A DNA stretch of 64,000 bases from Candidatus Latescibacterota bacterium (GTDB taxonomy: Bacteria; Latescibacterota; UBA2968), in contig OZ244960.1 in assembly GCA_965222605.1 (NCBI GenBank), positions 384,001-448,000 on the forward strand, written 5' to 3'. The position numbers and the translations under genes were made by a program. Of this stretch, positions 16,001-55,457 are shown in pieces; the stretch's first letter is position 1, and every line of letters starts with the position of its first letter. A model generated the notes under the pieces. The model worked only from the letters and a program-made list of their open reading frames with translations, was not told where the DNA came from and did not search any database.

Positions 16001-17677
16001 TGGATCATCGTACCAGAGACGGGTAAAAAAGTAAGTGAGACTCGGGCGGAGAAAGAGTGGACGCGAAGGATCTTCAAGCACAAATTCTTCAAGTTTTCGA
16101 GGGTCGTCTTCAATGAGCAAGATGCTGATTGCGTAGTCAAAGAGAATGTTATGAGAAAAAGCAATACTTTGTCCGGAAGATACCTTTGCCAAAATTTCAT
16201 CACTCAGGAGATTATCCCAAGCTATCTTCCTCACTAGTCTATCGAGGTGAAGATTATCATACACATCTTCCTGCCTGACGGTCAATGACCGTTCCTCTAT
16301 CATCAAACGTGCGACTTTTGTAAGAAGGAACTCGCGGTCATCCGCATTGTTTACCCCCTCAATCCGTCGTTGCCAAAACAGACCGAGTAACTGGACTTCA
16401 GAAAGAATCTGACTAAAATCAGGAACATCCTGGGAGGTCGTTAGAATCTTTTCCAAAAGCCAAAGATTGAACGGGTTAGCAAGGAGGGACTTGAAATCTT
16501 GAGAGCCAGATTCATAGATGGATTCCAGATGTGGAATCTGGTCAAATGCCTGTCGAATCTCGTCTTCATTCAAGGATGGAATTGTGAAATGTCGGCACAA
16601 AATTCCTTCGGTATGGTATTGGTCTAAATCGTTGTCATAAGGACTGTCAAACAGGTCTAAGAGTTCTTGCAATTTTCTTGCGTCATAGGTTCGTACTGTA
16701 ACCACGACATTCCATTTATCCAGTTCTTGAATTGCACGTTTAATCAAGCGTAGAAAGCGTTTGCGCGTCCGTTCATTTCGAGCGGCATCAAAGGCGTCAA
16801 AAAGTAAGGTTGCACATTCGTCTGAGATAGGAACGGATTTCAGTTTTTCTATCAGATCATCGCTGTCTGGTAATGCGTTCGACAAATCTTCTTGCGTACC
16901 ATCTCCGAGTTGATCAATTGACAAAAAAAGACGAGGTGTTTCGGTAGATTTTAGGCTTTGGCAAAGTTCTCTTAGCAAATATGTTTTTCCAATGCCTGGG
17001 CTACCAATAATGACCCCGTTTCCTTGTGAAACAAAGTTCTTCAAGTCATTGAGTAGCTTCTCGCGATTAATTTTTATCGTTGATTTTTGATCTGTACTTC
17101 CCTCCATATATTGGTTTGCCTTTTTTAGCCAATCTAATGGATCCCAAATTTTGCTTTCTTCATCACCAAAATGTTGCTCAAGTATAGTTTCTATTTTTCG
17201 TAATTTTTTTAAAGAGAATCCCCTGATTTCATGCACTAAGTCTTGATAATCACGTATGTCGTTTTCTTTGTCAAAACAAAATTTGCCGTCTATTATTTCC
17301 TTAAATCCTCGTCCTTGATATGTTTTTTGTTTTTTAGTCAAAATATAGACAATCAGATGGTCGAATCTTTTGTACAGCTCGTGAGCAACAAATTTTTCTA
17401 AAGTATCCTTAATTTTCTGACTGTTAGATTCTGCTGTGATTTGGTACGCTATTCTTCTCTTTTCATCACCTAAGTCTATTGCGGGAAAATTAGAACCTTC
17501 AGATATGTTTAAATTTTTCAAATCTGAATGCCCATAAATTTCTGAAAATAATGGAATTAATACATCCTCAGATATCTGATTAATATCTGTCATCCCCATT
17601 TTGTTTGAGATATTAACCTCAGTCACAAACCTTGACATCAATTTACAGATTCTATTTTTAGATTCTTGCAAGTTCAT
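13019..17677 (-). CDS. SMEK domain + STAND NTPase + long helical C-terminus (AVAST/Avs-like antiphage protein, possibly Avs2 type)
   Basis: N-terminal DINQISED...NLN...NFPAIDLGD...AYQITA...KIKDTLEKF (SMEK-like); Walker A GSPGIGKT; Walker B LLFDAFD; VVVTVR; NPFNL; C-terminal ILADHR...LLDIFAKTGW. Confidence 0.8.
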   Translation of the reverse strand: MNLQESKNRICKLMSRFVTEVNISNKMGMTDINQISEDVLIPLFSEIYGHSDLKNLNISEGSNFPAIDLGDEKRRIAYQITAESNSQKIKDTLEKFVAHELYKRFDHLIVYILTKKQKTYQGRGFKEIIDGKFCFDKENDIRDYQDLVHEIRGFSLKKLRKIETILEQHFGDEESKIWDPLDWLKKANQYMEGSTDQKSTIKINREKLLNDLKNFVSQGNGVIIGSPGIGKTYLLRELCQSLKSTETPRLFLSIDQLGDGTQEDLSNALPDSDDLIEKLKSVPISDECATLLFDAFDAARNERTRKRFLRLIKRAIQELDKWNVVVTVRTYDARKLQELLDLFDSPYDNDLDQYHTEGILCRHFTIPSLNEDEIRQAFDQIPHLESIYESGSQDFKSLLANPFNLWLLEKILTTSQDVPDFSQILSEVQLLGLFWQRRIEGVNNADDREFLLTKVARLMIEERSLTVRQEDVYDNLHLDRLVRKIAWDNLLSDEILAKVSSGQSIAFSHNILFDYAISILLIEDDPRKLEEFVLEDPSRPLFLRPSLTYFFTRLWYDDPETFWKAFWYVLPNDQSVHLRLFARLIPTSVIANEARKIRQLAPLLEKLQNGEDVATEAIMRLLQSFRALQIERDALWISFFYQVSVHWHADFAGDLSTLTSEILERATDPENTAIIDTCGEIGRRLFKWVWQEREANSNDWYNRLGSTLAVPLIAKTYGTNVEESRLLLEKVLELTQEDNFPISFLTWLTEHVDKIWIHDPDFVALVYHAVFIHDEISDERTSLSSGPILPLTSTRQQDYSSCQYRLIKHFSNFLQSAPLVATQAAIQSLNFFIIKKHIARHLKEGVKFEDLIQTFEFRGNRTHFVQDNSYIWDETSYRDKPIQIADELFKFIAALASSQDSLSRLDSLLDIFRDEVWVAFFWRRLLKTADQFPKVFVPRLFDLCIAKPIQLGNEVVHELGLFLENAAFEFTPTQLRQIEDIILALPEEATDKEDRKFLEYRRNRLIASIPKDLLQTNDTKKIREEMERIDQVPENKPLVSFTSWSGPYTEEKRLQEQGVDTTTPENQELQRFFEPLDKFKSDWLNDTPTEEATESILPLLQEAYAAIDGNSEVDKEVMDSLWFKLTACVAILSRVADKLETNQFTFCRQLALKGAKHKLPEPDPKRDAQEFTVYSPYPRHEAAQALLRLSIRQLDAEILDAIESLASDPVPSVRMVTAMELSRVYFKMPEKFWHFVEHRAAHETSQTVQKYIYHTLAHVVARKKENEDKTVRIMEKLLKRIPQPIVGLEPSNPFIDLLMWLAISRENSWALKKIKDTFFKDPIRFANSLNSAVSGVLKDYVIPKNLEMPEGYETTQRAITFLERAIDVASNGVQELSKTFKNTEEEEKKLRDIYTVIDGVITYLSFEIAYEKDRSEEPTEKITDELRCRFYNEIKPLMEQVIAFAEGENGVMFAPTAHDFLELLTSCLSCNPKEVLHLAAGVARSSERFGYNLDSLAVAEVVKFVEIILADHREEVRDGQGLEDLLNLLDIFAKTGWSDALRLVWRLDEVFR

Positions 17678-17724
17678 TGAATTAAACCCCGAAGGATTTC
17701 TATAAAATTAATGTATAACAAATT

Positions 17725-20700
17725 TCATCTGCGAATCCCCAACTCCGGCAAGCCCTCAACAATCTCCACAGTCTCCAAACTCACCGTAATCACCTTCCTA
17801 ATCAGTTTGACGATATATTCCGGATCATCTTCTCGATTCGGATCACTGATGATACCACTTCGTTTGTCCTCTTTGACGCGGTATTGATCAATGATCCATT
17901 CCAACGCCGAGCGATTCCCAAGCCGATAGGCATAAGCTTTCGGTGGAACCCCGTCGAGCGTCAGGAAATCGTTGTACACAATCTGCATCTTGTCTTTGGA
18001 GAACCTCATCTTTTCCACGCGCCAGTTGAGAGGCATATCCGGTGTTTCGATAAACGTGAGCGGATATTCGGGCATGTCCTTATAGCCGATGTGGATTTCC
18101 GATAACCGTTGCCCCGCTTTGGCAAAACTCCAAAAGTCTGGTGTGAGTGGAAGGCGCGGTAATTCCCGCTTGAGGTTGGCTTGATACCGCTCCCGATATT
18201 CTGGGTGATGGAGCAGACCGTAAACATAATGAAAGATGTCCCATTTGGTGATTGCATCATCCTGGTAATGCCTGCGAAATTGTTCCAACGCCCAATCGGT
18301 GATATTCTCACGACGATTTTCCCCGTCCTCATCGTAGGTGTAGAAAGAGAAGCATTGGGTTGCATCAAGAGATGTTAGGGATAGACTGGGAATTATGTCT
18401 GTGCAAAAACACCAATAATCAGTGCGTCCTCCAACGCTTGGAACAATAATCACTAAATTTTCCGATTCTGACTCAGAGGTAGGGAAGATGGACGGAAAAA
18501 CATACACGCGCTCGTTCATCATTCGGTCAAAGTAAAGGTTTGATTTCGTAAATGGACGATAGAGAGATGTTCTTACCTTTTCCTGTGAAAAATCAGTAGT
18601 TTTACCTCTTTGCAAGTTTCGTTTAAGTGTTTCGCTCCACTTGATTTTCGCATCATCCGACATCACAAAATCATCTACATTTTCATCTCGGTTCTCCCGG
18701 TGTTGCCAAATATTAATCTGCTCGTTGTAAGTTTGGATTGTCCGCCTCATATTCTTAGTGAGCACATCTCGGTTAAAGTTGTAAGCCCACGCATCTCGGG
18801 AGGTTGCAATCCCGCGACTGTAAGTCTTAAAAATCACATCATCCACCTCACCTTTTGCCGATTTTGCTTCTCTGGATCCCATAGGGATAAAAGTCTCAAA
18901 TTCAGCGTGGAGTCCTTCTGTGAGCCAAGTGTATCGCTGGTCAGGCGTTATTGTTTTCCATTCGATATTTTGGTAATGTTCCTTTGAATCGAGATAGCGA
19001 TATTTGTCCTCTTTCCGCCAGAACTCATCAACACGGGCGTAAAAGATTTTCGCATGAGTCTCTGGTTGGCTGCTCTTTTTAACGAAAAAATTGATACTAA
19101 CCCCGACCTGTATCCCAAAGACATTGTGTGTTGTCCCTGAGAGCTTTGGGTTCTTGCGAACATTCCCACTCAGATCCAGGATATAAATCGCGTCGAACTC
19201 GTCTGCGAGATGTTTCCGCATCCCATCAAAGGCTATGCCATCGAGAAATCCGTTGTTCGTCACAAAGGCGACAACACCTCCATCTCCTATCCGGTCCGAT
19301 GCCCACCGAATCGCCTTCACATAAGGGTCAGAGAGTGCGTTTTTATTGGTCGCCTTTGAATCTTGTGAATATGTTTCCCTTACCCGCATATCCATCGTCT
19401 TATATTTTCTATTCTTGTTGTTGTCATTCTCATTGACCTGTCCAACGTTATAAGGTGGATTGCCGATAACCACAAACATCGGTGTTTCCTTTTGCCGTTC
19501 CACCCTTTCCGCATTCTTCTCCGTGAACAACACCATCTGCTGTGGCTCTGCCAACTCAAAAGTATCAACCAAGCATATCCCTTCAAATGGCAAATAATGC
19601 TCTGTCGCCTCGTAAAATTCGTGCTCAATATTCATTGATGCGATGTAGTACGGCAGGAGCATCACCTCATTGCAGTGAAGGTTGGACGTGTACTTGTGCT
19701 CAAGCGAGGTTTTGCGAATCTCCCGCATAATTCGTACGATGAAATTGCCAGTGCCAACATAAGGGTCAATAATATGCACACCACCATCAGAAAGAGAACG
19801 GTCAAATTCGGTCTGCAAAATGTGCTCAACGCTTTTCACCATAAAATCGACGATGGGTTGCGGTGTATAGACGATACCGTGTGTATCGGCAACCTTGACT
19901 GAAAAGCCTTGAAAAAACTGCTCATAGACGGTATTGAGAAAATGTTGCTTTTGGGAGAAGTCGTTGATCGTCGCTGCGGTGCGTTCAATCACCACATAAA
20001 AACGATCAAGACTTTGGAGAAAATCATCCCGGCTAAAAGACTGAGATGTGAGGGCGTTGATTACAGTCTCAATTTCGCGGGCAATCACATTTCGGTTGGT
20101 AAAATCGGAATTGCTAAAGACGGTTCGGAAAATCCGCTCGGTCAAAAGATGTTGAATAAGCATCTCCTCAACCGCAGCTTCAGAGAGGTTTGGGTTGATA
20201 GACAATCGACATTTTTCGAGGAAATCTGCAAAGGCGGAAGTAAACCGGCTATTGGTCTCGCGCTCCTTCTGAATTAACGCCGCCAATCCGCTCCCTATCT
20301 CAGGAACTATGTCTTTGAACTGCGCGACTGCCTCTTCCCATTCGGCGTATTCTTGCGGACGGTGGGCAAAGAAAGTTTGGAGCGTCTCAATGAGTTGCTT
20401 TGGATCGGTCAGATCGGCGTTGAGCACTTGACGATCATTCTGCCAGAGGATCGCCCGTTGTGGCGTTTGGAACAGGATGTTGTCACGCGGATAACCCGAC
20501 TCAAACTTATGCTGAACTTCGGTTGGCAGATCATCGTGTATATCCTTTGCCTCCCAATAGCCTTGGGGCAACCGAAAATCGTCAATCAACGCCCCATCAA
20601 CCACAATCCGTTTATTTCGGTTGAGGATCATCGAATGTTCGGGAACGAGCGTCCAATCAAACTGCTTCCCACACGATTCGAGCAGCGATTGAAATGCCGA

Positions 20701-20805
20701 ACGCACGGCGGTTTCATGCGTGACGCCGAGCCGATCAAATTGGCCGAGCGATTCATAGTATGCTTTGACGGGCTTGTGGGTGGGTTTTAGGTTGAGTGTT
20801 GGCAT
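17725..20805 (-). CDS. Single-chain restriction-modification enzyme (REase + N6-adenine MTase + type ISP-like specificity domain; no helicase)
   Basis: VDGAL...YWEAKD, GIVYTP, IDPYVGTGNF, GNPPY, SLYRPFTK, LGNRSALEWIIDQY. Confidence 0.88.
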   Translation of the reverse strand: MPTLNLKPTHKPVKAYYESLGQFDRLGVTHETAVRSAFQSLLESCGKQFDWTLVPEHSMILNRNKRIVVDGALIDDFRLPQGYWEAKDIHDDLPTEVQHKFESGYPRDNILFQTPQRAILWQNDRQVLNADLTDPKQLIETLQTFFAHRPQEYAEWEEAVAQFKDIVPEIGSGLAALIQKERETNSRFTSAFADFLEKCRLSINPNLSEAAVEEMLIQHLLTERIFRTVFSNSDFTNRNVIAREIETVINALTSQSFSRDDFLQSLDRFYVVIERTAATINDFSQKQHFLNTVYEQFFQGFSVKVADTHGIVYTPQPIVDFMVKSVEHILQTEFDRSLSDGGVHIIDPYVGTGNFIVRIMREIRKTSLEHKYTSNLHCNEVMLLPYYIASMNIEHEFYEATEHYLPFEGICLVDTFELAEPQQMVLFTEKNAERVERQKETPMFVVIGNPPYNVGQVNENDNNKNRKYKTMDMRVRETYSQDSKATNKNALSDPYVKAIRWASDRIGDGGVVAFVTNNGFLDGIAFDGMRKHLADEFDAIYILDLSGNVRKNPKLSGTTHNVFGIQVGVSINFFVKKSSQPETHAKIFYARVDEFWRKEDKYRYLDSKEHYQNIEWKTITPDQRYTWLTEGLHAEFETFIPMGSREAKSAKGEVDDVIFKTYSRGIATSRDAWAYNFNRDVLTKNMRRTIQTYNEQINIWQHRENRDENVDDFVMSDDAKIKWSETLKRNLQRGKTTDFSQEKVRTSLYRPFTKSNLYFDRMMNERVYVFPSIFPTSESESENLVIIVPSVGGRTDYWCFCTDIIPSLSLTSLDATQCFSFYTYDEDGENRRENITDWALEQFRRHYQDDAITKWDIFHYVYGLLHHPEYRERYQANLKRELPRLPLTPDFWSFAKAGQRLSEIHIGYKDMPEYPLTFIETPDMPLNWRVEKMRFSKDKMQIVYNDFLTLDGVPPKAYAYRLGNRSALEWIIDQYRVKEDKRSGIISDPNREDDPEYIVKLIRKVITVSLETVEIVEGLPELGIRR

Positions 20806-22699: not shown

Positions 22700-22748
22700 A
22701 TAAACAGACACAAAACATCGTATTCGACGCTTTCAAGTGAGGACCCAA

Positions 22749-23528
22749 ATGCTGAAACGCTTTTTTGGTAAAGATGACGAAGGACCAGACAATGGTACAA
22801 CAAAAGAAAGACAAATCCACATCGAAGGGCAAGACGAGCACGTTCAGGAAGCCATGGACCTCCTCGCACAAGAGGATCAAGATGAACTCGACGAAGCCCT
22901 TGACGAAGTTAATGAAACCGTAAGAGAAGCCGCCAGAGCCTCCCTGCGCGACCTGAGACTTATGCAAGAGGGCCACTGTCCATCCTGCGGCCACAAAACA
23001 CTGCGGCAATTTCTCTTTACAACTGTGTGTTCCAGTTGCGGTTGGTTTTCATTCATTTCGCCCGAAGAAGGCAAATCTCACATCCACCTGCAAAGTGGAC
23101 GCACCATCGAATGCGGCACCACATTTGACACCAAAGGCGACTTTGTACTCGGCATCACAAATGGCGTTGTACGCGCCAAAGTCTCAAAAGAAAATGTCGA
23201 ATACATCGAATTTTCCTGGACCGACGAAGAAATCCAGCGCAAACGCGAATCCCGCGCAAAAGAAGAAACGGGAATATGCAGCTGGTGCGAAAAATCGCTC
23301 GCAGATGATAATGATGACAATATCATTGTCTATGCGGCTTTTGGCTCCACCCAGGAGCGCTATGTCTTCTGTTCAAACAAATGCAACGAAGCCTTCCAAA
23401 AACAATATCCCATTCGCATTCACAAAAATTGCTACGAACGCTCCTGCCTCGATTGCGACTTGTGCAACAAACGCTACCTGGGCGAAGACGAGACCTTTCT
23501 CAAATTGCTCGAGCAGGGGAAAGTTTGA
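22749..23528 (+). CDS. Hypothetical multi-zinc-finger protein
   Basis: CPSC...CSSC, CSWC...FCSNKC, CYERSCLDCDLC; GAGGA before ATG 22749. Confidence 0.75.
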   Translation: MLKRFFGKDDEGPDNGTTKERQIHIEGQDEHVQEAMDLLAQEDQDELDEALDEVNETVREAARASLRDLRLMQEGHCPSCGHKTLRQFLFTTVCSSCGWFSFISPEEGKSHIHLQSGRTIECGTTFDTKGDFVLGITNGVVRAKVSKENVEYIEFSWTDEEIQRKRESRAKEETGICSWCEKSLADDNDDNIIVYAAFGSTQERYVFCSNKCNEAFQKQYPIRIHKNCYERSCLDCDLCNKRYLGEDETFLKLLEQGKV

Positions 23529-23632: not shown

Positions 23633-24454
23633 TCACTCCTCTGAGGAAATCACATCCTCTTTGGGAAGGGGGTTCTCAGTGCATATCGACTCTAAGAACG
23701 GATACGATATGTGACTGCGTTTTGCTTCGCGTCTTAAACGAAGTTGATAGAGTTCCCGCACACAACGCGCTTTTGTGGCTTCATCGAGCACAGCGGGAAA
23801 GTGTTGTTGAATATAGTACAGCGCGTAGCCTGTTTCCACCTTAATGGGGCCAATCACCTCACCTATCTTAGCGGCAAATAACAAGGGTGCAACATCATTG
23901 GGTAAGTCACGCCGCCCAAGACGCCCGAGATATCCACTAACAGGGCGCGTGTGTTCATCGAGGGAATATTGACGCGCGAGGGTGTGAAAATCTCGCCCTC
24001 CGTCTCTGATCTGCAGGGCAATCTCTTCGGCAATATCCCGTTCATTGACCAGAATCCAGCATATTTCTCGACGTTCAGACGCCAGTTTCTGGCTTGCAAA
24101 ATGAGCTTGAATTTGCTCAGCGGTGATTTGTGCTTTTAGCCGCTCCTGGAGCATCTGGTATTCAATTTCCCGTGCCATGTCAGTGAAGGTGATATTGCGT
24201 TGTGATAACCAATTTTCCGTATCTTCAACACTTTCCAATCTGTTTTTGTACCGCCACTGGTCTATCCCCTTTTGCAGTTTATCACGAGGAATTTTAATTT
24301 TTTCTTGTTGGGCAATTTGAAAGACCAGACCGCGTTGGGTAAAGAGGTCGTGCAATGTGTCCTTGCCGGTCGCTCGCATTGATTTCACGATATGGGATAA
24401 GCGAATTTGTGTCTCGTTTATTTGAATGATGACGGGATCAATTGAATCAGCCAT
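23633..24454 (-). CDS. PpiC/parvulin-type peptidylprolyl isomerase-like protein
   Basis: WILV...DFHTLARQYSLD...GYLG...GEVIGPIKVETGY. Confidence 0.85.
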   Translation of the reverse strand: MADSIDPVIIQINETQIRLSHIVKSMRATGKDTLHDLFTQRGLVFQIAQQEKIKIPRDKLQKGIDQWRYKNRLESVEDTENWLSQRNITFTDMAREIEYQMLQERLKAQITAEQIQAHFASQKLASERREICWILVNERDIAEEIALQIRDGGRDFHTLARQYSLDEHTRPVSGYLGRLGRRDLPNDVAPLLFAAKIGEVIGPIKVETGYALYYIQQHFPAVLDEATKARCVRELYQLRLRREAKRSHISYPFLESICTENPLPKEDVISSEE

Positions 24455-25774
24455 TTATTCTCTACCCTCTGGCGAAAGCGCAGCCATTTCGCGCAATTGT
24501 CGCAATGGGTTGAGTGCGAGCATCAAAATGGACAGGCGATCTGTTATGATTTCTGCCGTGCCCTTCATGCCGAACATGAACGCTTTTTCCTCGCCGTGTA
24601 CAAGAATGGTCGTTTTCTCCAGATCAATAATTCCTCTAAACACGGTTCCCGAACCCTCATCGCCCATTGCATCAGGTGAAATCTGTCTCAAATAGCCGTG
24701 CTGGATGCCGTAGTCCTGAAATGGAAATGCTTCAAATTTGAGCTTTACCTTTTGTCCGGATGACAGCAGACCCACATCTTTGTTCAAGATCAGGGCTTCG
24801 GCTACAATCGGTGTCGAGGCCGGTGCAATGGTTACCAGTGTCTGGCCTTTATTGACCACTTGACCGGGGGTATTGACCAGAACTTGTGTGACGATTCCCG
24901 ATTCGGGTGCAAGAATCAAATCGATGTCGGCATCAACAGATCGATTAACCGTTTGTTTCGCCTGTTTGAGTCTGATTGCTGCAATGTCATAAGCATTTTG
25001 GAAATTGGCTCGAGTGCGTTCGAGTTCGAGTCGTTCTTCGAGAATTTGGCGTTTTAAGTCTTTTAGGGAAACCTCATAGCGATTGATCTCTGCCATCCGC
25101 GCGGGTAGTTCTGCCAATGCGCTCAGATAGCGAACTTTGGCTTCATTGCGTGCTGCAAGGCTGATGAGTTTTTTGTCGTACAATTTTTGGTTTTGTTCAT
25201 ATTGCTGTTTCAAATGTTCTACTTCTGCGGAGTGTATTTCGATCTCAATGTCGGGGGTCTGGAAAGTTTCTGTGTGATTCTCAAGTGCTTTCCGATAGGT
25301 CTGCATCGCGGTTTGCATGACGCGAACGCGATGCTCAAGCGCGGATATGGTCTCTTTTGCCAAAATTCTTTTTTGTGGCAGGGTTTGTTGCAAATCAAAT
25401 TCCGCTTTTTTGAATGCGATCTCCGCTTGTTCCAATTCGCGGAACTCTTTGAGGGTTTCTTGTGAACGAAGTCTGAATAATGTCTGCCCTTCGGCAATGT
25501 GGTCTCCCGAATGGATGGCGATTTCCTGGATTTCACCAGAACGCGGTGCCTGGATGTTCTGAACTTTTCCCAATGGGACGAGACGAAATGGGGCCGTTGC
25601 GACAATATCGACTTGACCGTACCAGGCCCATGCTATGGCGATGGCAATAAAAAGCAGTAATACATAAATAAGGGCGCGGCTGAAAAAGGGGTGCAATGAC
25701 CCTAAAAACTCGATGGTGCTTTCGGCCAGATCAGTTTCGTGTTCGGGCGGTTTTTCAACCTGGGCTTCAGCCAT
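24455..25774 (-). CDS. HlyD family membrane fusion (adaptor) protein
   Basis: N-terminal TM, IQAPRSG, coiled coil, ILAPESGIV, KLKFEAFPFQDYG, GMKGTAEI. Confidence 0.92.
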   Translation of the reverse strand: MAEAQVEKPPEHETDLAESTIEFLGSLHPFFSRALIYVLLLFIAIAIAWAWYGQVDIVATAPFRLVPLGKVQNIQAPRSGEIQEIAIHSGDHIAEGQTLFRLRSQETLKEFRELEQAEIAFKKAEFDLQQTLPQKRILAKETISALEHRVRVMQTAMQTYRKALENHTETFQTPDIEIEIHSAEVEHLKQQYEQNQKLYDKKLISLAARNEAKVRYLSALAELPARMAEINRYEVSLKDLKRQILEERLELERTRANFQNAYDIAAIRLKQAKQTVNRSVDADIDLILAPESGIVTQVLVNTPGQVVNKGQTLVTIAPASTPIVAEALILNKDVGLLSSGQKVKLKFEAFPFQDYGIQHGYLRQISPDAMGDEGSGTVFRGIIDLEKTTILVHGEEKAFMFGMKGTAEIITDRLSILMLALNPLRQLREMAALSPEGRE

Positions 25775-25785
25775 TGGAATTCCGT

Positions 25786-28761
25786 TTACACAACCTGCAA
25801 TTGTTGTCCCGATAGATTGTAATAAAGTCCTCGTTCTGCGATGAGCGTATCGTGCGTTCCCTGTTCAACGATATTTCCGTCATCCAGTACAAGGATTAAA
25901 TCCGCATCTTTTACCGTGCTCACCCGGTGGGCGATGATAAATGCGGTCTTGCCTTCCAACATAGTGTCTAACCCCTCCTGAATCGCTCGCTCGGACTCTG
26001 TATCCAGAGCATTTGTAGCTTCGTCAAAGATGATAATTTTGGGATCGCCATATAGTGCCCGGGCAATGGACAGGCGTTGCCGCTGACCACCGGAAAGTCC
26101 CACGCCCTGTTCCCGGATTTTGGTTTCATATCCCATTGGCAGGTCTTTGATAAAGTCGTGGGCATACGCGAGTTTGGAAACTTCCATTAAACGGTCCATA
26201 TCGACGTCTTTGACCCCCAGGGCGATATTTTCGGCGATGGTGGCATTGAACATGACGGGTTCTTGCAAAACCATCCCCACCTGACGCCGCAGCCATCCGG
26301 GATCAAATTCGCGCAGGTCTGTGCCATCAAGTGTGACGGATCCCTCTGTTGGATCAAATAGCCGGGGTATGAGTTTTACCAGCGTTGTCTTGCCCGCACC
26401 GCTGCGGCCTACTATGGCTACTTTCTGACCGGGTGATATGTCCAAATTTATATCGCTTAAGACATAAGACTCTGTCGATCCCGATCCATACCGAAAGAAC
26501 ACCTTGTCAAATTTGACGTGTCCCTCTACGTCTGTGAGTTGAACCGAATAGTTGCGATTGCGCGATGACTCGGTTCGCATATCGTAGATGTCGTTTAATC
26601 GGTCCAGTCCCAACTTTGCCAGTTGAATCTCCGGCCACAGGTTAATCAATCCCATAATCGGTCCCAATACCCTGCCACTGAGCATATTGAAAGCGATTAA
26701 TTGACCAACTGATAAGTCGCCCTGAATAACCAGATTCGCGCCATACCAGAGCACGATGGTGCTGCCCAAAGCATTGTTTAACTGTCCAAAAGACCCAAAT
26801 AGCATATTTGTTTTGATTGCGGTAAAACCAATTTTTATTTCCTGGGTCAGGCGTTCTTCCCATAGCCATCGCGTGGATTTTTCGACTGCGAGGGTTTTTA
26901 TGACTTCAATACCGCGCAGGGAATCGATGAGTACGGATGACCATTCCGAGCGGGCGAGAAAAGATCGTTGATTGATGGACTTGAGGATTGGGGTGTAGAT
27001 TAACGTCAGGATAATGCTGAGCGGTATGAACGCCAAAACCCAGAGTGTCAAATGGGTGTGGTAATAGAACATCAGGCCCAGATAGACAAAGATCATGACC
27101 GCATCTAAGACGGCTGAAATAGCCGTTTCTGTCAACAAGCTCCTCAAGTACTGGCTCTCTCGAAATCGCGTCATGATTTCACCGGTTCTGCGGAGGGCGA
27201 AAAATCGCATGGGCAGACGGAGAAGATGATGGTAGATATGCGATAACATCGAGATGCTGATGCGCGCACCCACATATCCAATCAGGTAGTTGCGCAGTGA
27301 TGATGTGGCGATCCGAAATAAGGCGATGATGATCATGCCCATTAGCAGGAGATTGAGCAGGCTGGTATCCTGGTGAACGAGGACTTGATCGAGGATCATC
27401 TGGGTGAACAGGGGTGAGGCAAGGCCAAAGAGATTCAGCACAAGGGAGGCGATCAGGATTTCGGTGAGGATACCGAGATATGGGCGGGCGAGTGGGAAAA
27501 ACCGCCTGAATGATGATTTTCTTCCCCTATATCTCGAGACCTTGTCGGTATATTCGAGTATTAAGGCGAGTTTGGACCATTTGTCTTCGAATTCTTTGCG
27601 GGAAATTTTTCTGCGTCCAAGCGCAGGGTCTGCAATCCATGCGTATTTTGAATTGATCCGGTATAGAACGACAAAGTGATAGCCTTCCCAGTGCGCGATG
27701 AGGGGCAGGTCTCTTTCTCCGATTTCACTGTATCCTATCCGCACGCCGCGCGTTAGAAAGCCCAGGTTTTCAGCGGCTTCGGCAAGTGCAGATAGGGATG
27801 TGCCTTCCCGCGAGACATTGGCCATGTCTCGCAGGCGATTTAATCCGATGGATCGTCCGTAATATTGACAGATCATGCCGAGACAAGCCGCGCCGCAATC
27901 GGTCTCATCGTGTTGCTTGATGTAGGGAAATGTGATGTAGGTTCGCAGTTTTCGAGGGCTTTGATCTGAGATGCTATTTTCAGGCTCGATCTCTATTGTT
28001 TTAATTCGATCATTTTGTGGCACTGTCTCGCGTTGTTCTTCTTGTTCATTCTGATCGGTCTTCTCGAAAACCCGGATGAGTTGGGGTGCGCTTTCAAGCA
28101 CTCTGGCGAGGTCGATGTGCGAAAGGGTGTAGAGCACGACTTCTGTTTCTGTTTCAATAGTGAGTTGATCGGAGTTGCCGCGAAAAAAGTCGCCCGGTTT
28201 TAGTATTTTGAGAGGTTGACCCATCTCTCTCAATTGCAAGGTTCCGCGGCCAATGAGGCAGAGCCTTTTTGCTTCTTCATCTCGCCATACTGTTTTTTCT
28301 TCTGCTACAATAACCTTCCGTTCCAGACATTGGAAAAAGAACTGCATGGCTTCCTGGAGGTTTACGGTGTCCAGTTTCAGAAATTTTGTGAAGTTCCGAT
28401 AGGCGATGTCCCGCACTTGATCAAGCAGGTAAGGGGTCAGTTTCCGATGCTCTGATACGAGGGCGTGAAAGTTGATCTGAGACATTTTCAGCACAGTTGA
28501 GGGTTCAACCGCCCGAACCGTTGCCCTGCGCGGTTTGCCCGTGAGCAATGCGCCTTCTCCGCAATGGTCGCCGGGAAAGAGATAGCTTAGGGTTTGCATC
28601 TGGTCATTGCTGTCTCTCGTTAAAACCCTGAGTTGCCCGGATACGACATAGTAAAAGCAATCCCCCTTGTCGCCTTCATAAAATAAAACCTCTCCGAGAT
28701 TGACCTGCATTTCCTCTGCAGGAGGTCTCAGAGAGGCGTATAGATCGGTTCGTTTTATCAT
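25786..28761 (-). CDS. Peptidase-containing ABC transporter (cNMP-binding domains + C39 peptidase + TMD + NBD)
   Basis: [10 protein letters not shown]...RRATVRA (cNMP); [11 protein letters not shown]...HFVV...IADP (C39 triad intact); GRSGAGKT; LSGGQRQR; FDEAT. Confidence 0.93.
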
Positions 28762-28871: not shown

Positions 28872-29471
28872 TTACTCAGCTTCAAATAGACCCCACCTTG
28901 AGTCGGGTGAGTCCTTGATTATCGTCTTGTCCGAAAGCAAGACCTGAAATCTGTATCGACTGCCATTAACGGGCATCTGAGCATAGATCGAATAGCAACG
29001 CCGGCAAGCCGTTATCTTGATCTCTGTGTCGCAGGGGACACAGTCCCAAATCCCCATAGGCTTTCTTTTGCATCGCAGGCACTCGATTTGTTCAATCCGG
29101 TTTTTGTTCCGTTCCTGGAATTTCTCCAAATCGCCAGAAGACATGGGGCCTATATACGATACACCTGCAGAGTTGCACACCTTGCAGAACGACATTTCGT
29201 CACCGTCCATCGTTCGCTTTTCGCCCGAAAAGTCATCGTACACCATCAGACAATTCCCACACGCGAAAATGCCCTCCACGTCTGGCTCGCGGTCTTCAAA
29301 ACGTCTGAAGTACGCCAGAATATCAGACTTATCACTATCGGGCAATTGTTCATAAGGCTGCATTTTGGTTCCGCACTCGTGGCAGCAACAGCCAAAGAAA
29401 TTCTTTGCCCATCGGCCACCGATCACCAGGAATACGATAATGAGAATGGTCAAAATAATAAACGCTTCCAC
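28872..29471 (-). CDS. Membrane-anchored protein with six CxxC motifs
   Basis: Hydrophobic N-terminus; CHEC, CGNC, CKVC, CLRC, CVPC, CRRC; GAGGA before GTG start. Confidence 0.75.
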   Translation of the reverse strand: MEAFIILTILIIVFLVIGGRWAKNFFGCCCHECGTKMQPYEQLPDSDKSDILAYFRRFEDREPDVEGIFACGNCLMVYDDFSGEKRTMDGDEMSFCKVCNSAGVSYIGPMSSGDLEKFQERNKNRIEQIECLRCKRKPMGIWDCVPCDTEIKITACRRCYSIYAQMPVNGSRYRFQVLLSDKTIIKDSPDSRWGLFEAE

Positions 29472-29583: not shown

Positions 29584-30945
29584 CTATTCAATCAATTCTT
29601 TAGTATCGTGAACGCGAATATCAACTTCAGGCCAGTATTTATTTAGAATATCTATGATGTGATCCTTAGGTCCGACAAAGATCATGATCATATTCTGAGG
29701 TACAAAGAACTTTTCGAGAAAGGTACGCACCTCAGCATCGGTAATCGACTTAGAACCACCTTTGTGAGTTGGAGGATTATAGATGGCTCGATATACCTCA
29801 TTGTCCAGTCTTCGCTGTGGTGTCAACAACTCATGAGCATGAGCATAGACGACATTGCGGCTTTCACGCAATTCTTTTATTTTTTTCCAAAAGCGAGGGT
29901 CGTCGGAAAGTCCTCGGATGAAATCGGATATTTTTGCGATCAGTTCTTCGCTATTCTGTAACTGGGGATCTGCATAAATTTCGAGAAACCTGATATTTTT
30001 TGATGATCGATAATCGCAAGCAGGACTATAGACCAATCCCAACTCTTCTCTAAAATATTTGTAGAGCAAACCTCGAACACCATATCGCCCAAGCGTCATG
30101 GATATCATTGGGGGAATATAATTTGTTTCACCTATACTCCCATAGGGGATCAGCCAATAACAGAAAACATTCTTTAAGTCTGAATAATTCTCAAAGACAA
30201 AAGCCGAAGGACCAAAATAATAATTGGCCTCTGAAGGTGCCAATGAATGCACAAACCCACCTGCCTGTCGCAGCAGTAGGGTCTCCCGTTCTTCTATAAT
30301 TGGACGAAGCATTTTGGCGATCTCGGTGGAATCTCGGTTTGAGATTACCTTGAAAAACACCACTTCTGTTTTCTGAAGCCGCTCATAATATTGCCTGATG
30401 TCCTTTTCAGAAAGGTTTTTCACCGTTTTTAAGGACCTGAGTTTCTTTATGCCTTTTGTTTGTGCAAGTGCAAAATTTCTCATAAGATTAGCGGTATTTC
30501 TCTCCAGATCATTCTGGTAATTAGTCACCTCTCGCTTTTTCACATCTTCCAGATCAGACTCAGCAAACTCGAAGTTGTGTATGAAATCGCGAACTATTTT
30601 TATAGACTCAGCGCAATTCTCGGATAGGGTATAAACGGATACGGTCAGGGATGTTGTGTTGGCAAAGACAGACAAATCAGTCCCTAATACTGCCAGTTGA
30701 TCTATGTACCCTCGCTTGTTTATGCCCTTCCAAATCAACTTTGAGGCTATCTCCGCCAGTCCATTTTGAGAAGGCGGTTCCTGGTTTTTCCCTGCTCCGA
30801 GAAAGACAATATCAATTCTTGTCAATGGCGCGCGTTTGTCCTGGCGATAAAAAATTTGGTGGTTAGAAATCTCTGCATAAGCGGGCAGGATACTACACAG
30901 AGAATACAGCACAAGGCCAAAAGTTACACTCTGGAGTCTATTCAT
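29584..30945 (-). CDS. Exported M16 (insulinase) family protein, non-catalytic partner
   Basis: Signal peptide; no HxxEH; FREELGLVYS; C-terminal IFVGP. Confidence 0.75.
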   Translation of the reverse strand: MNRLQSVTFGLVLYSLCSILPAYAEISNHQIFYRQDKRAPLTRIDIVFLGAGKNQEPPSQNGLAEIASKLIWKGINKRGYIDQLAVLGTDLSVFANTTSLTVSVYTLSENCAESIKIVRDFIHNFEFAESDLEDVKKREVTNYQNDLERNTANLMRNFALAQTKGIKKLRSLKTVKNLSEKDIRQYYERLQKTEVVFFKVISNRDSTEIAKMLRPIIEERETLLLRQAGGFVHSLAPSEANYYFGPSAFVFENYSDLKNVFCYWLIPYGSIGETNYIPPMISMTLGRYGVRGLLYKYFREELGLVYSPACDYRSSKNIRFLEIYADPQLQNSEELIAKISDFIRGLSDDPRFWKKIKELRESRNVVYAHAHELLTPQRRLDNEVYRAIYNPPTHKGGSKSITDAEVRTFLEKFFVPQNMIMIFVGPKDHIIDILNKYWPEVDIRVHDTKELIE

Positions 30946-32401
30946 TTGAGGATAGCCTTTCGGGAGAACTTAATCTTCTTATCCCCCATCCCACCAGCAA
31001 TACAAGACCAGCCAAAACCAATACCATAATCCCATAGTATAACGAGGTTCTCTGAGTTGGTTTTTCCTTTGTTGACACCGTTAGCGAAAGCGTTATGGAA
31101 TTGTCATCTCTCAGGTATTGATCTACCAGGCGCGGGATGTCGTCTCTGCGGGCAGATTTGAGATCTTGTATCAATTTTAGATACAGCAAGGGATCGTTGG
31201 CATGGGCGAATGCCCGCCCGAACTCATAGGCCATGTCTGAGCGGTCGTAAAAGTCGGAATACATTGATTTTAAATGCAAATTTTGGGCCGCAGTAAATTC
31301 ATCCTCTGAGACACCACGCGCCCTGATCTTCTCCAATTCTGTTTGGATAGCGGTCTCGATGGCATCTATGGAAGTGTCGAGCGGCAGGTCTGCCGTGCAA
31401 CTCAGCAAACTAAATCCTTTATAGTGGTTAAGCGATACTCTGAAAACCCTTGCGAGCTTAGAATCAATCACAGAAGACCGCAGGGAATTTGAGGTTTTGG
31501 TCAAAATGCGAGCAAGAATGAACAAGGTCGCATAGTCGCGATGGCCTAAATGGGGGGTGTGCCAACTCTTCCGGAATTTGGCAATAACGAGATCTTTTGA
31601 AGTATCTTTTACTCTTTTTCCGAGTATTTCAGGATTGGGGTATTGCGGAGAAGGCAATTCGCTCGATGATTCGCCTGGTATTTGCTCATTGCCATAAGCT
31701 TCATCCAGTTTGGTCAGGACATGGTCCATATCCACATCGCCAATCACAACGATCAATCTCTTTTGGCGACGCAGGAAATTATCATAGTACGCTTTCAAAT
31801 CATCAGGTTTGAGGTGTTTAATAAAATCTTCAGTGCCAATATATGATGACTGATTTTTACCATGGACTAAACCAAAAAAGCGATTGGTAAATTTTTTGGG
31901 TGGGTTTGCTAAATTACGACTTCTTTCCGTTATTACAATTTTCTTTTGGTTTTCAACGACCGCTTCATTGATTTTTGTATTGTAAAATCTATCGCGGTCT
32001 ATCTCAACTGCGAGATCAAATTTGTCCTTCGGAAATCGCATTCTTAAGCACATATAATGGATAGTTGTAAAGGCATAACTTTGACCTCCATTATCGACGA
32101 TAATCTGGTTGAGTTTTCCTGGCTCATGGCTACCAGTATCTGACATGATATGCTCTAAGAAGTGTATTCTCCCTTGTTCACCTTCTTTTTCGTCTGCCCA
32201 GCCAGCGCAGTACAAGGTATAATATTCAAATGTTGGAATTGTTCTATCTACCACGATAACGGCATCGAGGTTAGGATTGATGGTGTAGTGCTGCGCGATG
32301 AGTTCTTCAGATAATGCGGCTGTGCCAATAAGTTGGTAGGCCGAGCAGGTACTGGACAAGACGCAGGCAAGGAATGAGATGAGAACATAAATTTTTTTCA
32401 T
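30938..32401 (-). CDS. Exported, C-terminally anchored M16 (pitrilysin) zinc peptidase
   Basis: Signal peptide MKKIYVLISFLACVLSSTCSA; HFLEH; IVITER; VVIGDVD; C-terminal TM YYGIMVLVLAGLVLLVGWG. Confidence 0.85.
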   Translation of the reverse strand: MKKIYVLISFLACVLSSTCSAYQLIGTAALSEELIAQHYTINPNLDAVIVVDRTIPTFEYYTLYCAGWADEKEGEQGRIHFLEHIMSDTGSHEPGKLNQIIVDNGGQSYAFTTIHYMCLRMRFPKDKFDLAVEIDRDRFYNTKINEAVVENQKKIVITERSRNLANPPKKFTNRFFGLVHGKNQSSYIGTEDFIKHLKPDDLKAYYDNFLRRQKRLIVVIGDVDMDHVLTKLDEAYGNEQIPGESSSELPSPQYPNPEILGKRVKDTSKDLVIAKFRKSWHTPHLGHRDYATLFILARILTKTSNSLRSSVIDSKLARVFRVSLNHYKGFSLLSCTADLPLDTSIDAIETAIQTELEKIRARGVSEDEFTAAQNLHLKSMYSDFYDRSDMAYEFGRAFAHANDPLLYLKLIQDLKSARRDDIPRLVDQYLRDDNSITLSLTVSTKEKPTQRTSLYYGIMVLVLAGLVLLVGWGIRRLSSPERLSSNE

Positions 32402-32481
32402 ATCTGATACCAGGCAAAGCTGATCGTGGTTGTTTCGTCTATATGTCTGAATACATTCTTGCACTACACAGTATAAAATCT

Positions 32482-32514
32482 GGAGGTTCTTCCAGCAAGC
32501 TTGAAAGAACCTCC
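32482..32514. terminator. Stem-loop just downstream of the cargo gene
   Basis: GGAGGTTCTT...AAGAACCTCC. Confidence 0.6.
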
Positions 32515-32566
32515 TTTTATTTTTGTATTCTTGCGAGCCAGCTTACTCAAAGAGAGGAACCATCAA

Positions 32567-33145
32567 CTATCCATTATCACCTTCCGTACTGTTCTCCTCA
32601 TCGGGCAAACCGCTACCGTCATCATCATCATCATCATTGGCACAATCACCATCACAATTCTCATCATCACAATACTCACAATTCTCATCATCATCTCCAC
32701 AATCCAAAGGGACGGTGCATCCATCTTCCGTGCCGTCATCTGAAAAGTCAAAATCCCAAAAATCCCCCAAATGGTCCTTATCATTGTTTTCACTGTCTGA
32801 CTCTGAGCTACCACCGCCACCACTGCCACCACTGCCACCTAAAATTGGACCAAAATCATTATCGAAAACATAATCAAATTCCTGAGTAAAGGGTTTTCCC
32901 TCAGTATCAAAGGTGCCGCTCTTAGGGTAACAATCAAATGTGTTGCCGCCACATTCTCCAGAGATCTCATCCATACCTGTGGCCCCGTCATCCATCTTGC
33001 CGTCACCCGGCATCGTTATGCTTCCTCCATTCCCTCCTCGAGCCATGTTCATTTCTTGTGGTGAAATGGTCTCAGAGAGAATGGAGAGCGGTTTGCAGGT
33101 AAGTCCCGCGATGGATGTGGTGTGTTCAGAAATATTTTCTGGCAT
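32567..33145 (-). CDS. Acidic Asp/Gly/Cys-rich protein with a double-glycine leader (putative PCAT substrate)
   Basis: AGGAGG RBS; leader ...ISPQEMNMARGG matches L(-12)S(-11)xxE(-8)L(-7)xxI(-4)xGG; eight Cys in the core. Confidence 0.8.
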   Translation of the reverse strand: MPENISEHTTSIAGLTCKPLSILSETISPQEMNMARGGNGGSITMPGDGKMDDGATGMDEISGECGGNTFDCYPKSGTFDTEGKPFTQEFDYVFDNDFGPILGGSGGSGGGGSSESDSENNDKDHLGDFWDFDFSDDGTEDGCTVPLDCGDDDENCEYCDDENCDGDCANDDDDDDGSGLPDEENSTEGDNG

Positions 33146-33260
33146 GATACAACCTCCTGTTAAGGGTTATACCGCTTTTGCGAGCAACAAACGAATGGTG
33201 TACAAATAACTGTTCTCCAAACCAGTTCATTTGCGGTGATTCGATTCGTTCTATATTCAT
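33126..33260 (-). CDS. 44-aa small ORF overlapping the start of the cargo gene
   Basis: GAAAGGAGGT immediately before ATG; MNIERIESPQMNWFGEQLFVHHSFVARKSGITLNRRLYHARKYF*. Confidence 0.35.
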   Translation of the reverse strand: MNIERIESPQMNWFGEQLFVHHSFVARKSGITLNRRLYHARKYF

Positions 33261-33339
33261 ACCTCCTTTCGGGTGTTCTGCGTTATGGGTGAGAGAGGCA
33301 TTCCAAAATCGTCAAAAAACAATCCTCTAAACATTCAAC

Positions 33340-34059
33340 TCAAACATCTTCCGAAAACGACTGAATTTCTCCGCGCATAACTTTTGTGCGGTACTCGGTA
33401 GGAGGTATTCCGTGTATGGTCTTAAAAGCCTCACGCAAACGATTTGACGAAAGAAATCCGCACTCACTTGCAATTTCATAGACGAATATTGAGGGTTTTT
33501 TTATCAAACGCTGTGCCTGTGCAACTCTGATCTCCCGCAATTTTTCCGAGAAAGTCTTGCCCACATGTTTTTTAAACAGCTTGCAACCGTGCGATCTGGA
33601 AAACCCGAAATGGTTCATGAGGTCATCAAAGTTCAGTTCTGGATTGCTGTAATGCTCCTCCAAAAACGACTCCAAACTCCTTTTTATCCAATCTTGTGAA
33701 GGCATGCGTTTCTTAACCTTTGCCAAAAATTTGCCCTTCCTGATCGGTTTATCCAGCACGCCTACAGCACCCAGCTTGAATATTCTTTCCATTAATTCCA
33801 GGCGTCCCATCTCTCCCATGATCAGGACATTTGTTTGAATTTCCTCTACCTTTAGACAAGTCAAAAGAGATATCGCATCGAGGTCTCTTATATCTATGTC
33901 AACCACAGCGAGATCGATCTTCTCGCGTCTCAAAGTTTTAAACCCTGCTACCCCATCTCTCGCCGTGAATACATCGTAAAGTTCATCGCTCAAGTATTCA
34001 CAAAGGGTCGATATAACGCAGCTATCGCGATCTATAATCAGAACTTTCTGCTCATTCAT
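33340..34059 (-). CDS. Response regulator, REC + AraC-type HTH
   Basis: VLIIDRD, DLAVVDID, LDKP; C-terminal IASECGFLSSNRLREAFKTIHGIPPTEYR. Confidence 0.88.
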   Translation of the reverse strand: MNEQKVLIIDRDSCVISTLCEYLSDELYDVFTARDGVAGFKTLRREKIDLAVVDIDIRDLDAISLLTCLKVEEIQTNVLIMGEMGRLELMERIFKLGAVGVLDKPIRKGKFLAKVKKRMPSQDWIKRSLESFLEEHYSNPELNFDDLMNHFGFSRSHGCKLFKKHVGKTFSEKLREIRVAQAQRLIKKPSIFVYEIASECGFLSSNRLREAFKTIHGIPPTEYRTKVMRGEIQSFSEDV

Positions 34060-34105
34060 ATTTTTCCCCATACGCCAAAAAATTTCTACAACCATATCAA
34101 AACAT

Positions 34106-34145
34106 GCACCTTGCATGCCAACAGATATGTGCAACATGTGTGCCA
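34106..34145 (-). promoter_or_regulatory. Sigma-54 -24/-12 promoter(s)
   Basis: TGGCAC-ACATG-TTGC (34131-34145) plus a weaker TGGCAT-GCAAG-GTGC just downstream. Confidence 0.6.
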
Positions 34146-34303
34146 ATTTGAACTTTTTAGAGAATAATATTTGTAAACCATTATTTTTACTTCACATAGA
34201 ATTATTATCTTGCAAAATCCAGGCTGAATATCAAATTAAGAGGTGAAAACATCGTTCACTTTTTCCCAATCAATTTGACACTACTTTTTCCTTTTAATTC
34301 GCA

Positions 34304-53819: not shown

Positions 53820-53868
53820 ATTTAACTCCTTATAAAGTGGGCTTGACCGTTTCATTATCAAACGTTTT

Positions 53869-54766: not shown

Positions 54767-55412
54767 ATCCGCTAAATACTGATCTATTCGGGTTTCATCG
54801 TCTGTTTCGGTGTTCTTATTCGCCTTTGTGACAGTCGTTTTTTGCGCCTTCTTGGTGTCCGCTTTAGGTGCGGTTTGAGCAACGGAGAGGGTAAAACCCG
54901 TGTTTTTGTCCACATCCAAAAGCGCAATTCCCAAGATTTCTAAGCCCTTTTCTCGACGCGACTGGCAGCCATTCCAAAAGTGATCCAGGCCATAGGTCTT
55001 TTTGCCTGACTTGGGCACAAAGGACGCATCTAAGACCAGGATACGTGCAGGTGCTTGGTCTTGGTCTTGGTCTTGGTCTATGCTTTCATTGATGATGGCG
55101 CGGTTGAAATCCATAAATCGAAAGGGCTTGTCAAACTGACGGGTGTATGTGCGTTCGCAAAGGTGGGAATACCGTGACAGGTTACGAAAATTGATTTTAC
55201 CCCGTGCAATCAGTATGGTCGTAAATAGGGTCATGAGAAACTTTTTTTGGGGCTTGGAAATGTTGAGCCGATTGAGTATCTTTTCTGCGATTGCCATTGT
55301 GCCGTCTCACTCGTTTGGGTTGTCAGTGATTTGGAACATCTTTGACATCTAATCTGAGTGAACGGCACTTTTTTGTCAATCCTTTAGATCATAAAAACTG
55401 TCCGAAGTATTG
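54767..55412 (-). mobile_element. Truncated DDE transposase element (IS701/IS4-like), copy 2, cut by IS256
   Basis: Near-identical to 50986-51445; ORF 54746..55297. Confidence 0.8.
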
Positions 55413-55457
55413 ATAATAATAATAAACAAGTCCGGAAGGTGATAAATCCCAAACTAC

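Follow-up and report, generated by a model that had tools for sequence, protein, structure and literature searches.

Background

Gene clusters of the layout described here have been catalogued in cyanobacteria since 2011. In the group II 'bacteriocin' clusters a cNMP-PCAT and HlyD are combined with SurA and an M16 peptidase, for which a role in a second maturation step was assumed (Wang et al. 2011, PMC3140520; Micallef et al. 2015, PMC4558948). PCATs require hydrophobic residues at the leader positions -4, -7 and -12 (PMC10885120). In the blp locus an intact exporter was present in 23.5 % of the genomes and CAAX genes in 98 % (PMC4860687); within bacteriocin loci, such proteases can also perform signal processing instead of immunity (PMC9298176). 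An S41 protease confers nisin resistance (PMC4698656), and the M16 proteases HrrP and SapA degrade antimicrobial peptides, including NCR peptides (PMC8175422).

The cluster reported here lies in a stretch of 64,000 nucleotides of a Candidatus Latescibacterota genome, called the window. The cluster type is known; the leader and the cargo family are undescribed as far as the literature searches reach. These left subscription journals mostly uncovered and found no description of either, and Tables S2 and S3 of Wang et al. 2011 may list similar acidic precursors.

Gene cluster and exporter

The genes follow each other on one strand in the order receiver-AraC regulator, cargo, hairpin, M16a, M16b, 199-aa CxxC membrane protein, cNMP-C39-ABC transporter, HlyD and rotamase (Table 1). 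A long PCAT (CAP_ED) together with HlyD, SurA and M16 is the gene content of the cyanobacterial group II. In the exporter encoded 4.3 kb downstream of the cargo, the C39 triad (C289/H362/D378 by alignment to LahT, 6mpz) and the ATPase motifs are intact, as is expected of a PCAT linked to its substrate. Fourteen above-cutoff matches to TolC-family domains were found in the genome at about seven loci. The same genome carries the complete cluster once more at C1:746735-758249, there with another core.

Table 1. Features of the cluster; positions refer to the window, residues to the cargo protein
Feature	Position	Strand	Basis or remark
Response regulator, receiver and AraC HTH	33340..34146	-	Pfam; likely activator
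Ribosome-binding site AGGAGG	33153..33158	-	conserved upstream of homologs
Cargo ORF	32567..33145	-	192 aa (ORF translation)
Double-glycine leader, 38 aa, residues 1-38	33032..33145	-	invariant C(-22), L(-19), E(-8), M(-7), GG
Acidic mosaic core, 154 aa, predicted disordered	32567..33031	-	sequence modules and AlphaFold
Core, N-module, residues 39-102		-	
Core, Gly/Ser linker, residues 103-113		-	
Core, W/F-acidic motif, residues 125-135		-	
Core, CTVPxDC module, residues 143-149		-	
Core, CEYCDDENC module, residues 156-168		-	
Core, tail, residues 177-192		-	
Stem-loop between cargo and M16a	32482..32514	-	13 pairs; z -5.37
M16B active subunit (M16a), signal peptide, H80-F-L-E-H84 and E159, C-terminal membrane anchor	30938..32401	-	Pfam, alignment
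M16B partner (M16b), no HxxEH, signal-peptide-like N-terminus	29584..30945	-	Pfam, alignment
199-aa protein, N-terminal membrane helix and conserved CxxC motifs, no family	28872..29471	-	travels with M16 pair
Long-type PCAT: cNMP-binding domain, C39 peptidase, ABC membrane and ATPase domains	25786..28761	-	profiles, 6mpz alignment
HlyD adaptor	24455..25774	-	TIGR01843 above cutoff
PpiC/SurA-type rotamase without hydrophobic signal stretch	23633..24454	-	Pfam

A Pfam scan revealed no sensor kinase within the cluster. Among the 20 proteins scanned around the locus was no TonB-dependent transporter, the partner expected for an import of the Fus/PqqL type; the loci of relatives were inspected by ORF listing. 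Units of regulator, cargo, M16a and M16b are repeated in G018 and G019, several cassettes of relatives are without a regulator, and the regulator evolves fast (dN/dS 0.46). The 199-aa protein is under purifying selection (dN/dS 0.24) and is kept alongside orphan M16 pairs; its AlphaFold model had a pLDDT of 39.3, its Atlas matches below 0.9 are leads only, and BLAST did not connect it with a sister cluster's 192-aa Cys protein (E 0.17). An ORF of 130-140 aa without family replaces or accompanies this gene between M16b and the PCAT at L018:10770-11171, L015:11585-12007 and L017:9502-9924. The conserved downstream flank of the insertion site carries on the plus strand a 263-aa Cys-rich protein with several CxxC motifs and a weak match to DUF7576 (window 22737-23528).

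The exporter is frequently decayed in relatives: we observed two PCAT::HlyD deletion fusions, two split PCATs and one absence, and a further locus lacking HlyD beside a cargo remnant. The fusions (L016:2417-6160 in G019, L019:9783-13223 in G020) join a truncated PCAT to a truncated HlyD by two different in-frame deletions and are independent losses of the exporter. Cargo and exporter were both intact in merely 5 of the 11 genomes having cargo or a close exporter.

Cargo gene and its product

The translation of the ORF confirmed the double-glycine leader and the Asp-rich core with few basic residues that the original prediction had proposed: 34 Asp and 13 Glu (47 acidic residues) are accompanied by 4 Lys, no Arg and 8 Cys, presenting a net charge of about -43, and the core contains both the aromatic/acidic stretches and the poly-Asp run. 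The leader ends in I(-12)S(-11)PQE(-8)M(-7)NMA(-4)RGG and thus has at -12, -7 and -4 the hydrophobic pattern of double-glycine PCAT substrates. This pattern and the intact C39 triad downstream support the proposed reading as a putative exported cargo with a cleavable leader. The gene is not an assembly artefact, since a contig of a separate run from a different study (X3, study P2) spans 32300-33390 with no substitutions and three gaps. AGGAGG or a one-base variant was located upstream of 15 of 16 cargo genes compared.

Other parts of the prediction stood in part. The four Cys pairs have the spacings C65-x6-C72, C143-x5-C149, C156xxC159 and C164xxxC168 as described, but this state is specific to the allele (1 of 85 homologs) and recombinant, because the two Cys modules, CTVPxDC in 27 and CEYCDDENC in 10 of the 85 homologs, co-occur in this protein only. 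The Gly/Ser linker exists, but the two subdomains it was thought to split are unsupported: the AlphaFold model (pLDDT 46.7, pTM 0.13, 20-sequence alignment) is unstructured save a leader helix at residues 29-35. The hairpin is real, with none of 200 shuffles folding as well as 32514-32482. It was taken for a sign of high expression, but it also precedes 6 of 26 M16a entries without upstream cargo (strict pattern) and therefore is, on its own, no such sign. A search of sequencing runs listed none identified as RNA, X20 being at most a candidate.

Pfam and NCBIfam profiles assigned the cargo to no family, and the class II bacteriocin HMMs (PF10439 and others) gave no match. The short membrane helix of class II bacteriocins and microcins is missing, the maximal 17-residue hydropathy of the 154-aa core being 0.16. 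Nor does the core have the folded toxin domain of a polymorphic toxin, as judged by the pLDDT and zero HMM matches. The leader is conserved (pN/pS 0.24) versus a core with pN/pS of about 1.0, the latter measured over 115 codons against the closest sequenced allele.

A family of shuffled cores

Eighty-nine matches among 364 candidates were obtained in a protein search with the cargo, two of them labelled Gemmatimonadota by their depositors. Eighty-five homologs were analysed; three lacked a leader (P0011, P0012, P0069) and one was missed by the pattern (P0045). C(-22), L(-19), E(-8), M(-7) and GG were invariant in all 85, and position -4 was Ala, Val or Thr. The cargo was present in 8 of 41 genomes searched, all of one Latescibacterota genus (8 of 21 genomes), and missing from 13 of the 21 congeners; G001 had a 5'-truncated remnant. 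A complete cargo-M16 cassette, 59-79 % like this one, was noticed on an 11 kb contig of an alphaproteobacterial MAG (L054, recorded as Curvivirga sp.); it is probably mis-binned rather than transferred.

The homolog cores, 88-181 aa in length, are composed of at least 10 N-module types, several middle modules and 8 tail types, which are freely crossed; two N-types, for example, are each paired with both of two tails. The allele described here has exact DNA blocks in common with three differently built alleles. Composition varies less than sequence: the cores contain on average 29 % D+E and 3 % K+R, the C-terminal half is 39 % acidic, and a Trp in acidic context occurs in 82 of 85. The number of Cys per core ranges from 0 to 8 (65 even, 13 odd, 7 none), and no core of the 85 has a hydrophobic helix of membrane-spanning type (17-residue hydropathy > 1.5). 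The cargo gene is one allele of a module-shuffled acidic family with a near-invariant leader; a constant N-terminus with recombining variable cassettes is a feature of polymorphic toxins.

Shuffling was also visible in metagenomic reads. In contigs of run X4 the M16 pair matched the one described here with 0-1 differences over about 1.9 kb, and the cores were exchanged at 33026-33033, the boundary of the leader, and at 32763 and 32684, borders of modules; in run X3 one joint skips the entire 11-kb cluster. The joints were read at 90 % likeness in metagenomes of mixed samples, where core and M16 allele are not tied to one and the same cell, and the module breakpoints rest on four runs. A scan of metagenome contigs for the cargo pattern gave 28 matches, none of them confirmed.

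The M16 protease pair

M16a and M16b have the composition of an M16B heterodimer, with adjacent genes for a subunit carrying HxxEH and a distal Glu and for an HxxEH-less partner; the match to 3amj_C had an E value of 7e-18. The pair is predicted from its sequence to face the periplasm. M16a was detected in 21 of 21 genus genomes with one to five matches each, the cargo in 8 of 21. Tandem divergent pairs are common in relatives. In G004, G007 and G014 the unit of M16a, M16b and the 199-aa gene is situated between the same two flanking genes, without cargo and exporter and with up to 90 % identity. In genus g6, 10 of 13 genomes have a single-copy ortholog of M16a, thus a housekeeping origin of the pair is possible.

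The motif HxxEH was intact in 34 of 34 full-length M16a proteins. Three of 37 M16a and three of 36 M16b entries were left out as short, and the PCAT fusions were excluded from the dN/dS analysis. M16a had a dN/dS of 0.27 in cargo-less genomes versus 0.25 beside cargo. Values of 0.26-0.27 for the M16 genes compare with 0.10-0.11 for PCAT and HlyD; the former are approximate because dS is near 0.85. In nine of ten locus pairs the M16 alleles differed with a dS of 0.56-0.97 versus 0.25-0.36 for the adjacent PCATs and are, by this measure, older than these. Variation within the M16 proteins peaks at two places, the strand that follows HxxEH (top 6 % of windows) and the helix behind the zinc Glu (top 1 %); both segments were picked post hoc. 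The pN/pS of these segments, chosen after the entropy plot, was 0.63-0.70 and below 1.

Core similarity was not correlated with M16 similarity in a Mantel test of low power (n=14, with one pair common to three cargos; rho -0.06 to 0.08, p 0.23-0.71). Such a co-variation would be expected of the cognate immunity gene in a polymorphic toxin system. Cargo-adjacent and other M16a interleave in the tree, with 11 changes versus a shuffled mean of 10.8. The net charge of M16a ranges from -6 to +15 and is not markedly basic, thus a chamber for acidic substrates is unsupported. In G008 the cargo is present, its own downstream M16 pair is IS-broken and an upstream pair is intact; in G010 the sole M16a match is split. 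All 21 genus genomes have precursors with a sister leader, therefore 'orphan' M16 pairs may serve these in trans.

Leader superfamily and sister clusters

The original prediction had suggested a profile search of the leader for paralogues. The 38-position profile recovered 117 representatives, about 105 of them short precursors, and was positive in 41 of 132 genomes of the class, belonging to two families only. The leader motif of the superfamily is CxxL-x10-EM-x4-G[G/L/Q], and its precursors precede more distant cNMP-PCATs in the order. In this genome the leader pattern occurs at 7 places, 4 of which are precursors beside PCATs. A hydrophobic helix was found in 29 of 69 sister cores, and these resemble class II bacteriocins. 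Sister cores scored 17-23 bits versus PF10439 with a cutoff of 27.1; for 77 superfamily proteins Pfam yielded DUF6861 (2 proteins) and PF10439 below cutoff, and nothing else. The slot between precursor and exporter is occupied in sister clusters by CAAX/Rce1, a DUF3267 zincin, S41 or an unrelated, 25 % identical M16 pair. The unnamed leader is a handle on about 100 unannotated peptide clusters of a lineage without cultured members; many of the clusters resemble genuine class II bacteriocins.

Gly-zipper precursors resembling class II bacteriocins and microcins (L079:1303-1587, L094:2185-3040, L085:5111-5497, L090:668-1087), several with CAAX proteases downstream, are likely genuine bacteriocins. 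A third PCAT-HlyD-rotamase cluster of this genome, 57 % identical, lies at G000:C1:4904573-4913411 (L055). Besides two glycosyltransferase genes it has two precursors with sister leaders, whose cores are anionic and amphipathic; its products are possibly glycosylated bacteriocin-like peptides.

Further loci in the window and genome

A RiPP-like system of sigma-54 activator, 53-70-aa peptide and RRE-rSAM-SPASM enzyme was noticed at G000:C1:3979730-3981631 (L040), C1:1583042-1584487 and L027-L041. The peptide contains a single Cys and a Pro-rich stretch and has a tail of Asp/Trp; the enzyme is SCIFF/QhpD/PapB-like and below all NCBIfam cutoffs. Copies about 90 % identical, mostly two to three per genome, are present in 16 of 21 genus genomes. 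At G000:C1:2338065-2343090 (L056) a related response regulator is followed by an HlyD-like protein, an ABC transporter, two small membrane/zinc-finger-like ORFs and a 149-aa acidic protein; this is another peptide export locus, without C39. Within the window, a Type ISP restriction-modification enzyme, a 1552-aa ATPase-like protein and a 330-aa ORF (13019-20805) look like a defence island. Genes of secreted proteins lie among IS elements at 51519-62932; the proteins have dockerin/EF-hand-like repeats at the N-terminus as well as leucine-rich repeats and are, by inspection, eukaryote-like repeat proteins.

Proposed function and alternatives

We tentatively propose that the cargo is a polymorphic secreted antagonist of strain versus strain, with a broad proteolytic protection by the M16 pair in the manner of blp; we place this reading somewhat below an even chance. 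The AraC-type regulator would activate the genes of cargo, M16 pair and exporter, with read-through lowered by the hairpin. C39 would cut off the leader after Gly-Gly, and HlyD with a TolC-family channel encoded elsewhere would take the core outside in one step. The variable N-module may set the target range, with the Trp-in-acidic motif and the acidic tail as common business end. Incoming cores would be degraded by the membrane-tethered M16 heterodimer with a broad, overlapping specificity, and strains would therefore gain by collecting divergent pairs and dropping production. The sequences themselves show the anatomy of the cluster, the mosaic cores, the patchy presence, the decay of exporters and the retention of the protease pair; leader cleavage, one-step export, periplasmic location of the M16 pair, antagonism and degradative protection are steps that we infer.

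The constant leader with a variable core, the patchy cargo, the decaying exporters and the M16 pairs kept intact without cargo argue for an antagonist with a proteolytic shield, as do the greater age of M16 alleles relative to adjacent PCATs, their variation beside the active site, and the sister clusters with the same leader, bacteriocin-like cores and other proteases in the slot. Shielding by proteolysis has precedents in the S41 protease of nisin resistance and in M16 HrrP/SapA. Against an antagonist speak the lack of any known toxic activity or domain in the core, the 0 of 85 cores with a helix of membrane-spanning type, and the size and acidity of the core, which greatly exceed those of class II bacteriocins. 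In a strict toxin-immunity system core and M16 would be paired one to one, which was not found (n=14, low power). Further points against the shield are the possible service of orphan M16 pairs to sister precursors, the broken pair in G008, the split M16a in G010 and an M16 dN/dS below 1. A wider proposal, which we regard as rather unlikely, is a new type of conflict system. The disordered anionic modular exoprotein would be a weapon or a peptide trap, and periplasmic M16B arrays, which vary at the active site and accumulate as orphans, would form a broad degradative immunity repertoire. The whole would be a branch of an order-wide Cys-leader superfamily in which four protease families filled the protease slot independently. 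If the reading as antagonist with shield is right, M16B would join CAAX and S41 as shields of bacteriocin type, and acidic disordered proteins would join the list of antagonists or decoys.

The same composition could protect against cationic antimicrobial peptides. As an anionic, Trp-bearing sponge in the manner of streptococcal SIC, the exported core would trap peptides of hosts or competitors, the M16 pair would degrade those arriving in the periplasm in the way of HrrP and SapA, and the secreted part would be a public good dropped by cheaters. Streptococcal SIC is an acidic, Trp-rich and hypervariable protein. It binds and inactivates LL-37 and defensins (PMC11279074), and M16 proteases known to degrade NCR peptides would supply the second half of such a defence (PMC8175422). 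A sponge accounts for the conservation of composition and not of sequence (the acidity, the Trp in acidic context, the missing hydrophobic helix, the disorder), for the absent core-M16 pairing and for the retention of the M16 pair alone. The leader superfamily, however, carries mostly bacteriocin-like cores, and the structured-looking, Cys-paired variable N-modules exceed the needs of a charge sponge. We consider this explanation improbable.

Clearly improbable, too, is a signal of strain identity, in which the response regulator of the cluster would mediate the sensing of the core, or of a piece of it, as a pheromone, and the M16 pair would trim or erase this signal in the periplasm. The repetition of the fast-evolving regulator gene with each cassette would fit, and pheromones with GG leaders (PMC10885120) and a signal-processing CAAX protease (PMC9298176) are known, but the cluster has no sensor kinase, several cassettes have no regulator, and cores of 88-181 aa are far longer than known pheromones.

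To a two-step maturation, with leader removal by the PCAT followed by M16 cleavage of the core, the products being small acidic or disulfide peptides, we give an equally small chance. It was part of the original prediction, as a polyprotein cut by the M16 pair, and Wang et al. 2011 interpret the group II M16 in this way (PMC3140520, available sections). M16B heterodimers are known to mature class III lanthipeptides and subtilosin, and the modular core with Gly/Ser linkers and the dominance of even Cys counts would suit such a processing. Type I export systems bypass the periplasm, and we assume the same for PCAT-HlyD here. The proposal is weakened because the M16 pair, with its signal peptides and membrane anchor, is predicted to be periplasmic while the export would bypass this compartment. 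Moreover, M16 did not co-vary with the core type (n=14), by inspection no cut motif is common to the modules, and the pair is retained under selection where cargo is absent.

A Ca2+/metal chelator or mineral nucleator, the other role originally predicted and possibly re-imported and degraded by M16 to release metal like FusC with ferredoxin, is very improbable as main function. The 47 acidic of 154 residues, the 8 Cys and the family-wide acidity speak for it, and periplasmic M16 proteases process imported acidic metalloproteins (PMC12731061; PMC6793856), yet the Cys count varies from 0 to 8, the four-pair state is unique to this allele and no TonB-dependent receptor was among the cluster genes. 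Patchy presence, with 13 of 21 congeners missing the gene, repeated loss and module shuffling argue further against it. Searched with the motif definitions of EF-hand, RTX and TSP3, the core showed no RTX, no TSP3 and merely two loose DxDxDG matches within Asp runs. An incidental Ca binding by the core is plausible at its net charge.

Finally, the cargo is hardly a RiPP precursor with Cys-to-Asp/Glu thioethers cross-linked in trans by the QhpD/PapB-like radical SAM enzyme: G011 and G015 have an RRE-rSAM-SPASM gene directly ahead of the cargo, the genome described here has two copies, and the nearest Atlas clusters of the cargo were QhpC at 0.80 (below 0.9, leads only), but no such gene is in this cluster, 7 of 85 cores are without Cys, and the enzyme is treated as a separate system, because it has its own 53-70-aa upstream peptide, is missing at E 1e-40 from two of the eight cargo genomes (G008, G018), and the acceptors at Cys+4 are unenriched (D/E 0.35 versus a local background of 0.36, highest 0.46 at +8), where ranthipeptides and QhpC-type proteins have Cys-x3-Asp or a fixed Cys-acceptor spacing.

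Comparison with known systems

With LahT/LahA and PCAT1/CtA the locus has in common the C39 triad, the leader helix with -4/-7/-12 and conserved leaders with diverse cores (PMC10885120; PDB 6mpz, 6v9z; available sections). Unlike these, it has an additional invariant Cys(-22)/Leu(-19) segment in the leader, a cNMP domain and a rotamase partner, and no tailoring enzyme. A subunit with HxxEH-x75-E and an HxxEH-less partner are common to the M16B heterodimers SPH2681/2682 (3amj), PttP1/P2 and AlbE/F, the degraders HrrP/SapA and FusC/PqqL. In contrast to those, both subunits here have signal-type N-termini and one is membrane-anchored, the pairs are multi-copy and diversified around the active site, and there is no TonB receptor partner. 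Polymorphic toxin systems (PMC3482391) resemble the locus in a constant N-terminus for trafficking, a variable part that recombines, cassettes in tandem and downstream genes left as orphans, whereas a recognisable toxin domain and a one-to-one cognate immunity protein are missing here.

The pneumococcal blp locus is similar in that a GG-leader cargo recombines without allelic fidelity between cargo and immunity, the exporter is often broken and the protease-type immunity is kept (PMC4860687, available sections). It differs from the cluster here, which has a diderm type I export, M16B and not CAAX, a large acidic disordered cargo and not a small hydrophobic pore former, and no kinase or pheromone gene.

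In the cyanobacterial group II clusters, as here, a long C39 transporter with cyclic-nucleotide-binding domain is accompanied by HlyD, a SurA-type rotamase and an M16 peptidase, and GG-leader precursors and frequent transposase damage are common to both. The host here is a member of the Latescibacterota and not a cyanobacterium. Group II leaders are of HetP (KIxDLxYLEx10GG), NHLP or N11P type; these are absent from the cargo leader, which had no Pfam or NCBIfam match and follows CxxL-x10-EM-x4-GG, and the mosaic acidic cores of 88-181 aa are a further difference. The M16 pair is, in contrast to group II, a secreted, membrane-anchored heterodimer, repeated per cassette and kept without cargo. 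The retention of the protease pair after loss of cargo and exporter in these populations points against maturation, and thus argues against the extra-cleavage role assumed for the group II M16 in the available sections of PMC3140520 and PMC4558948.
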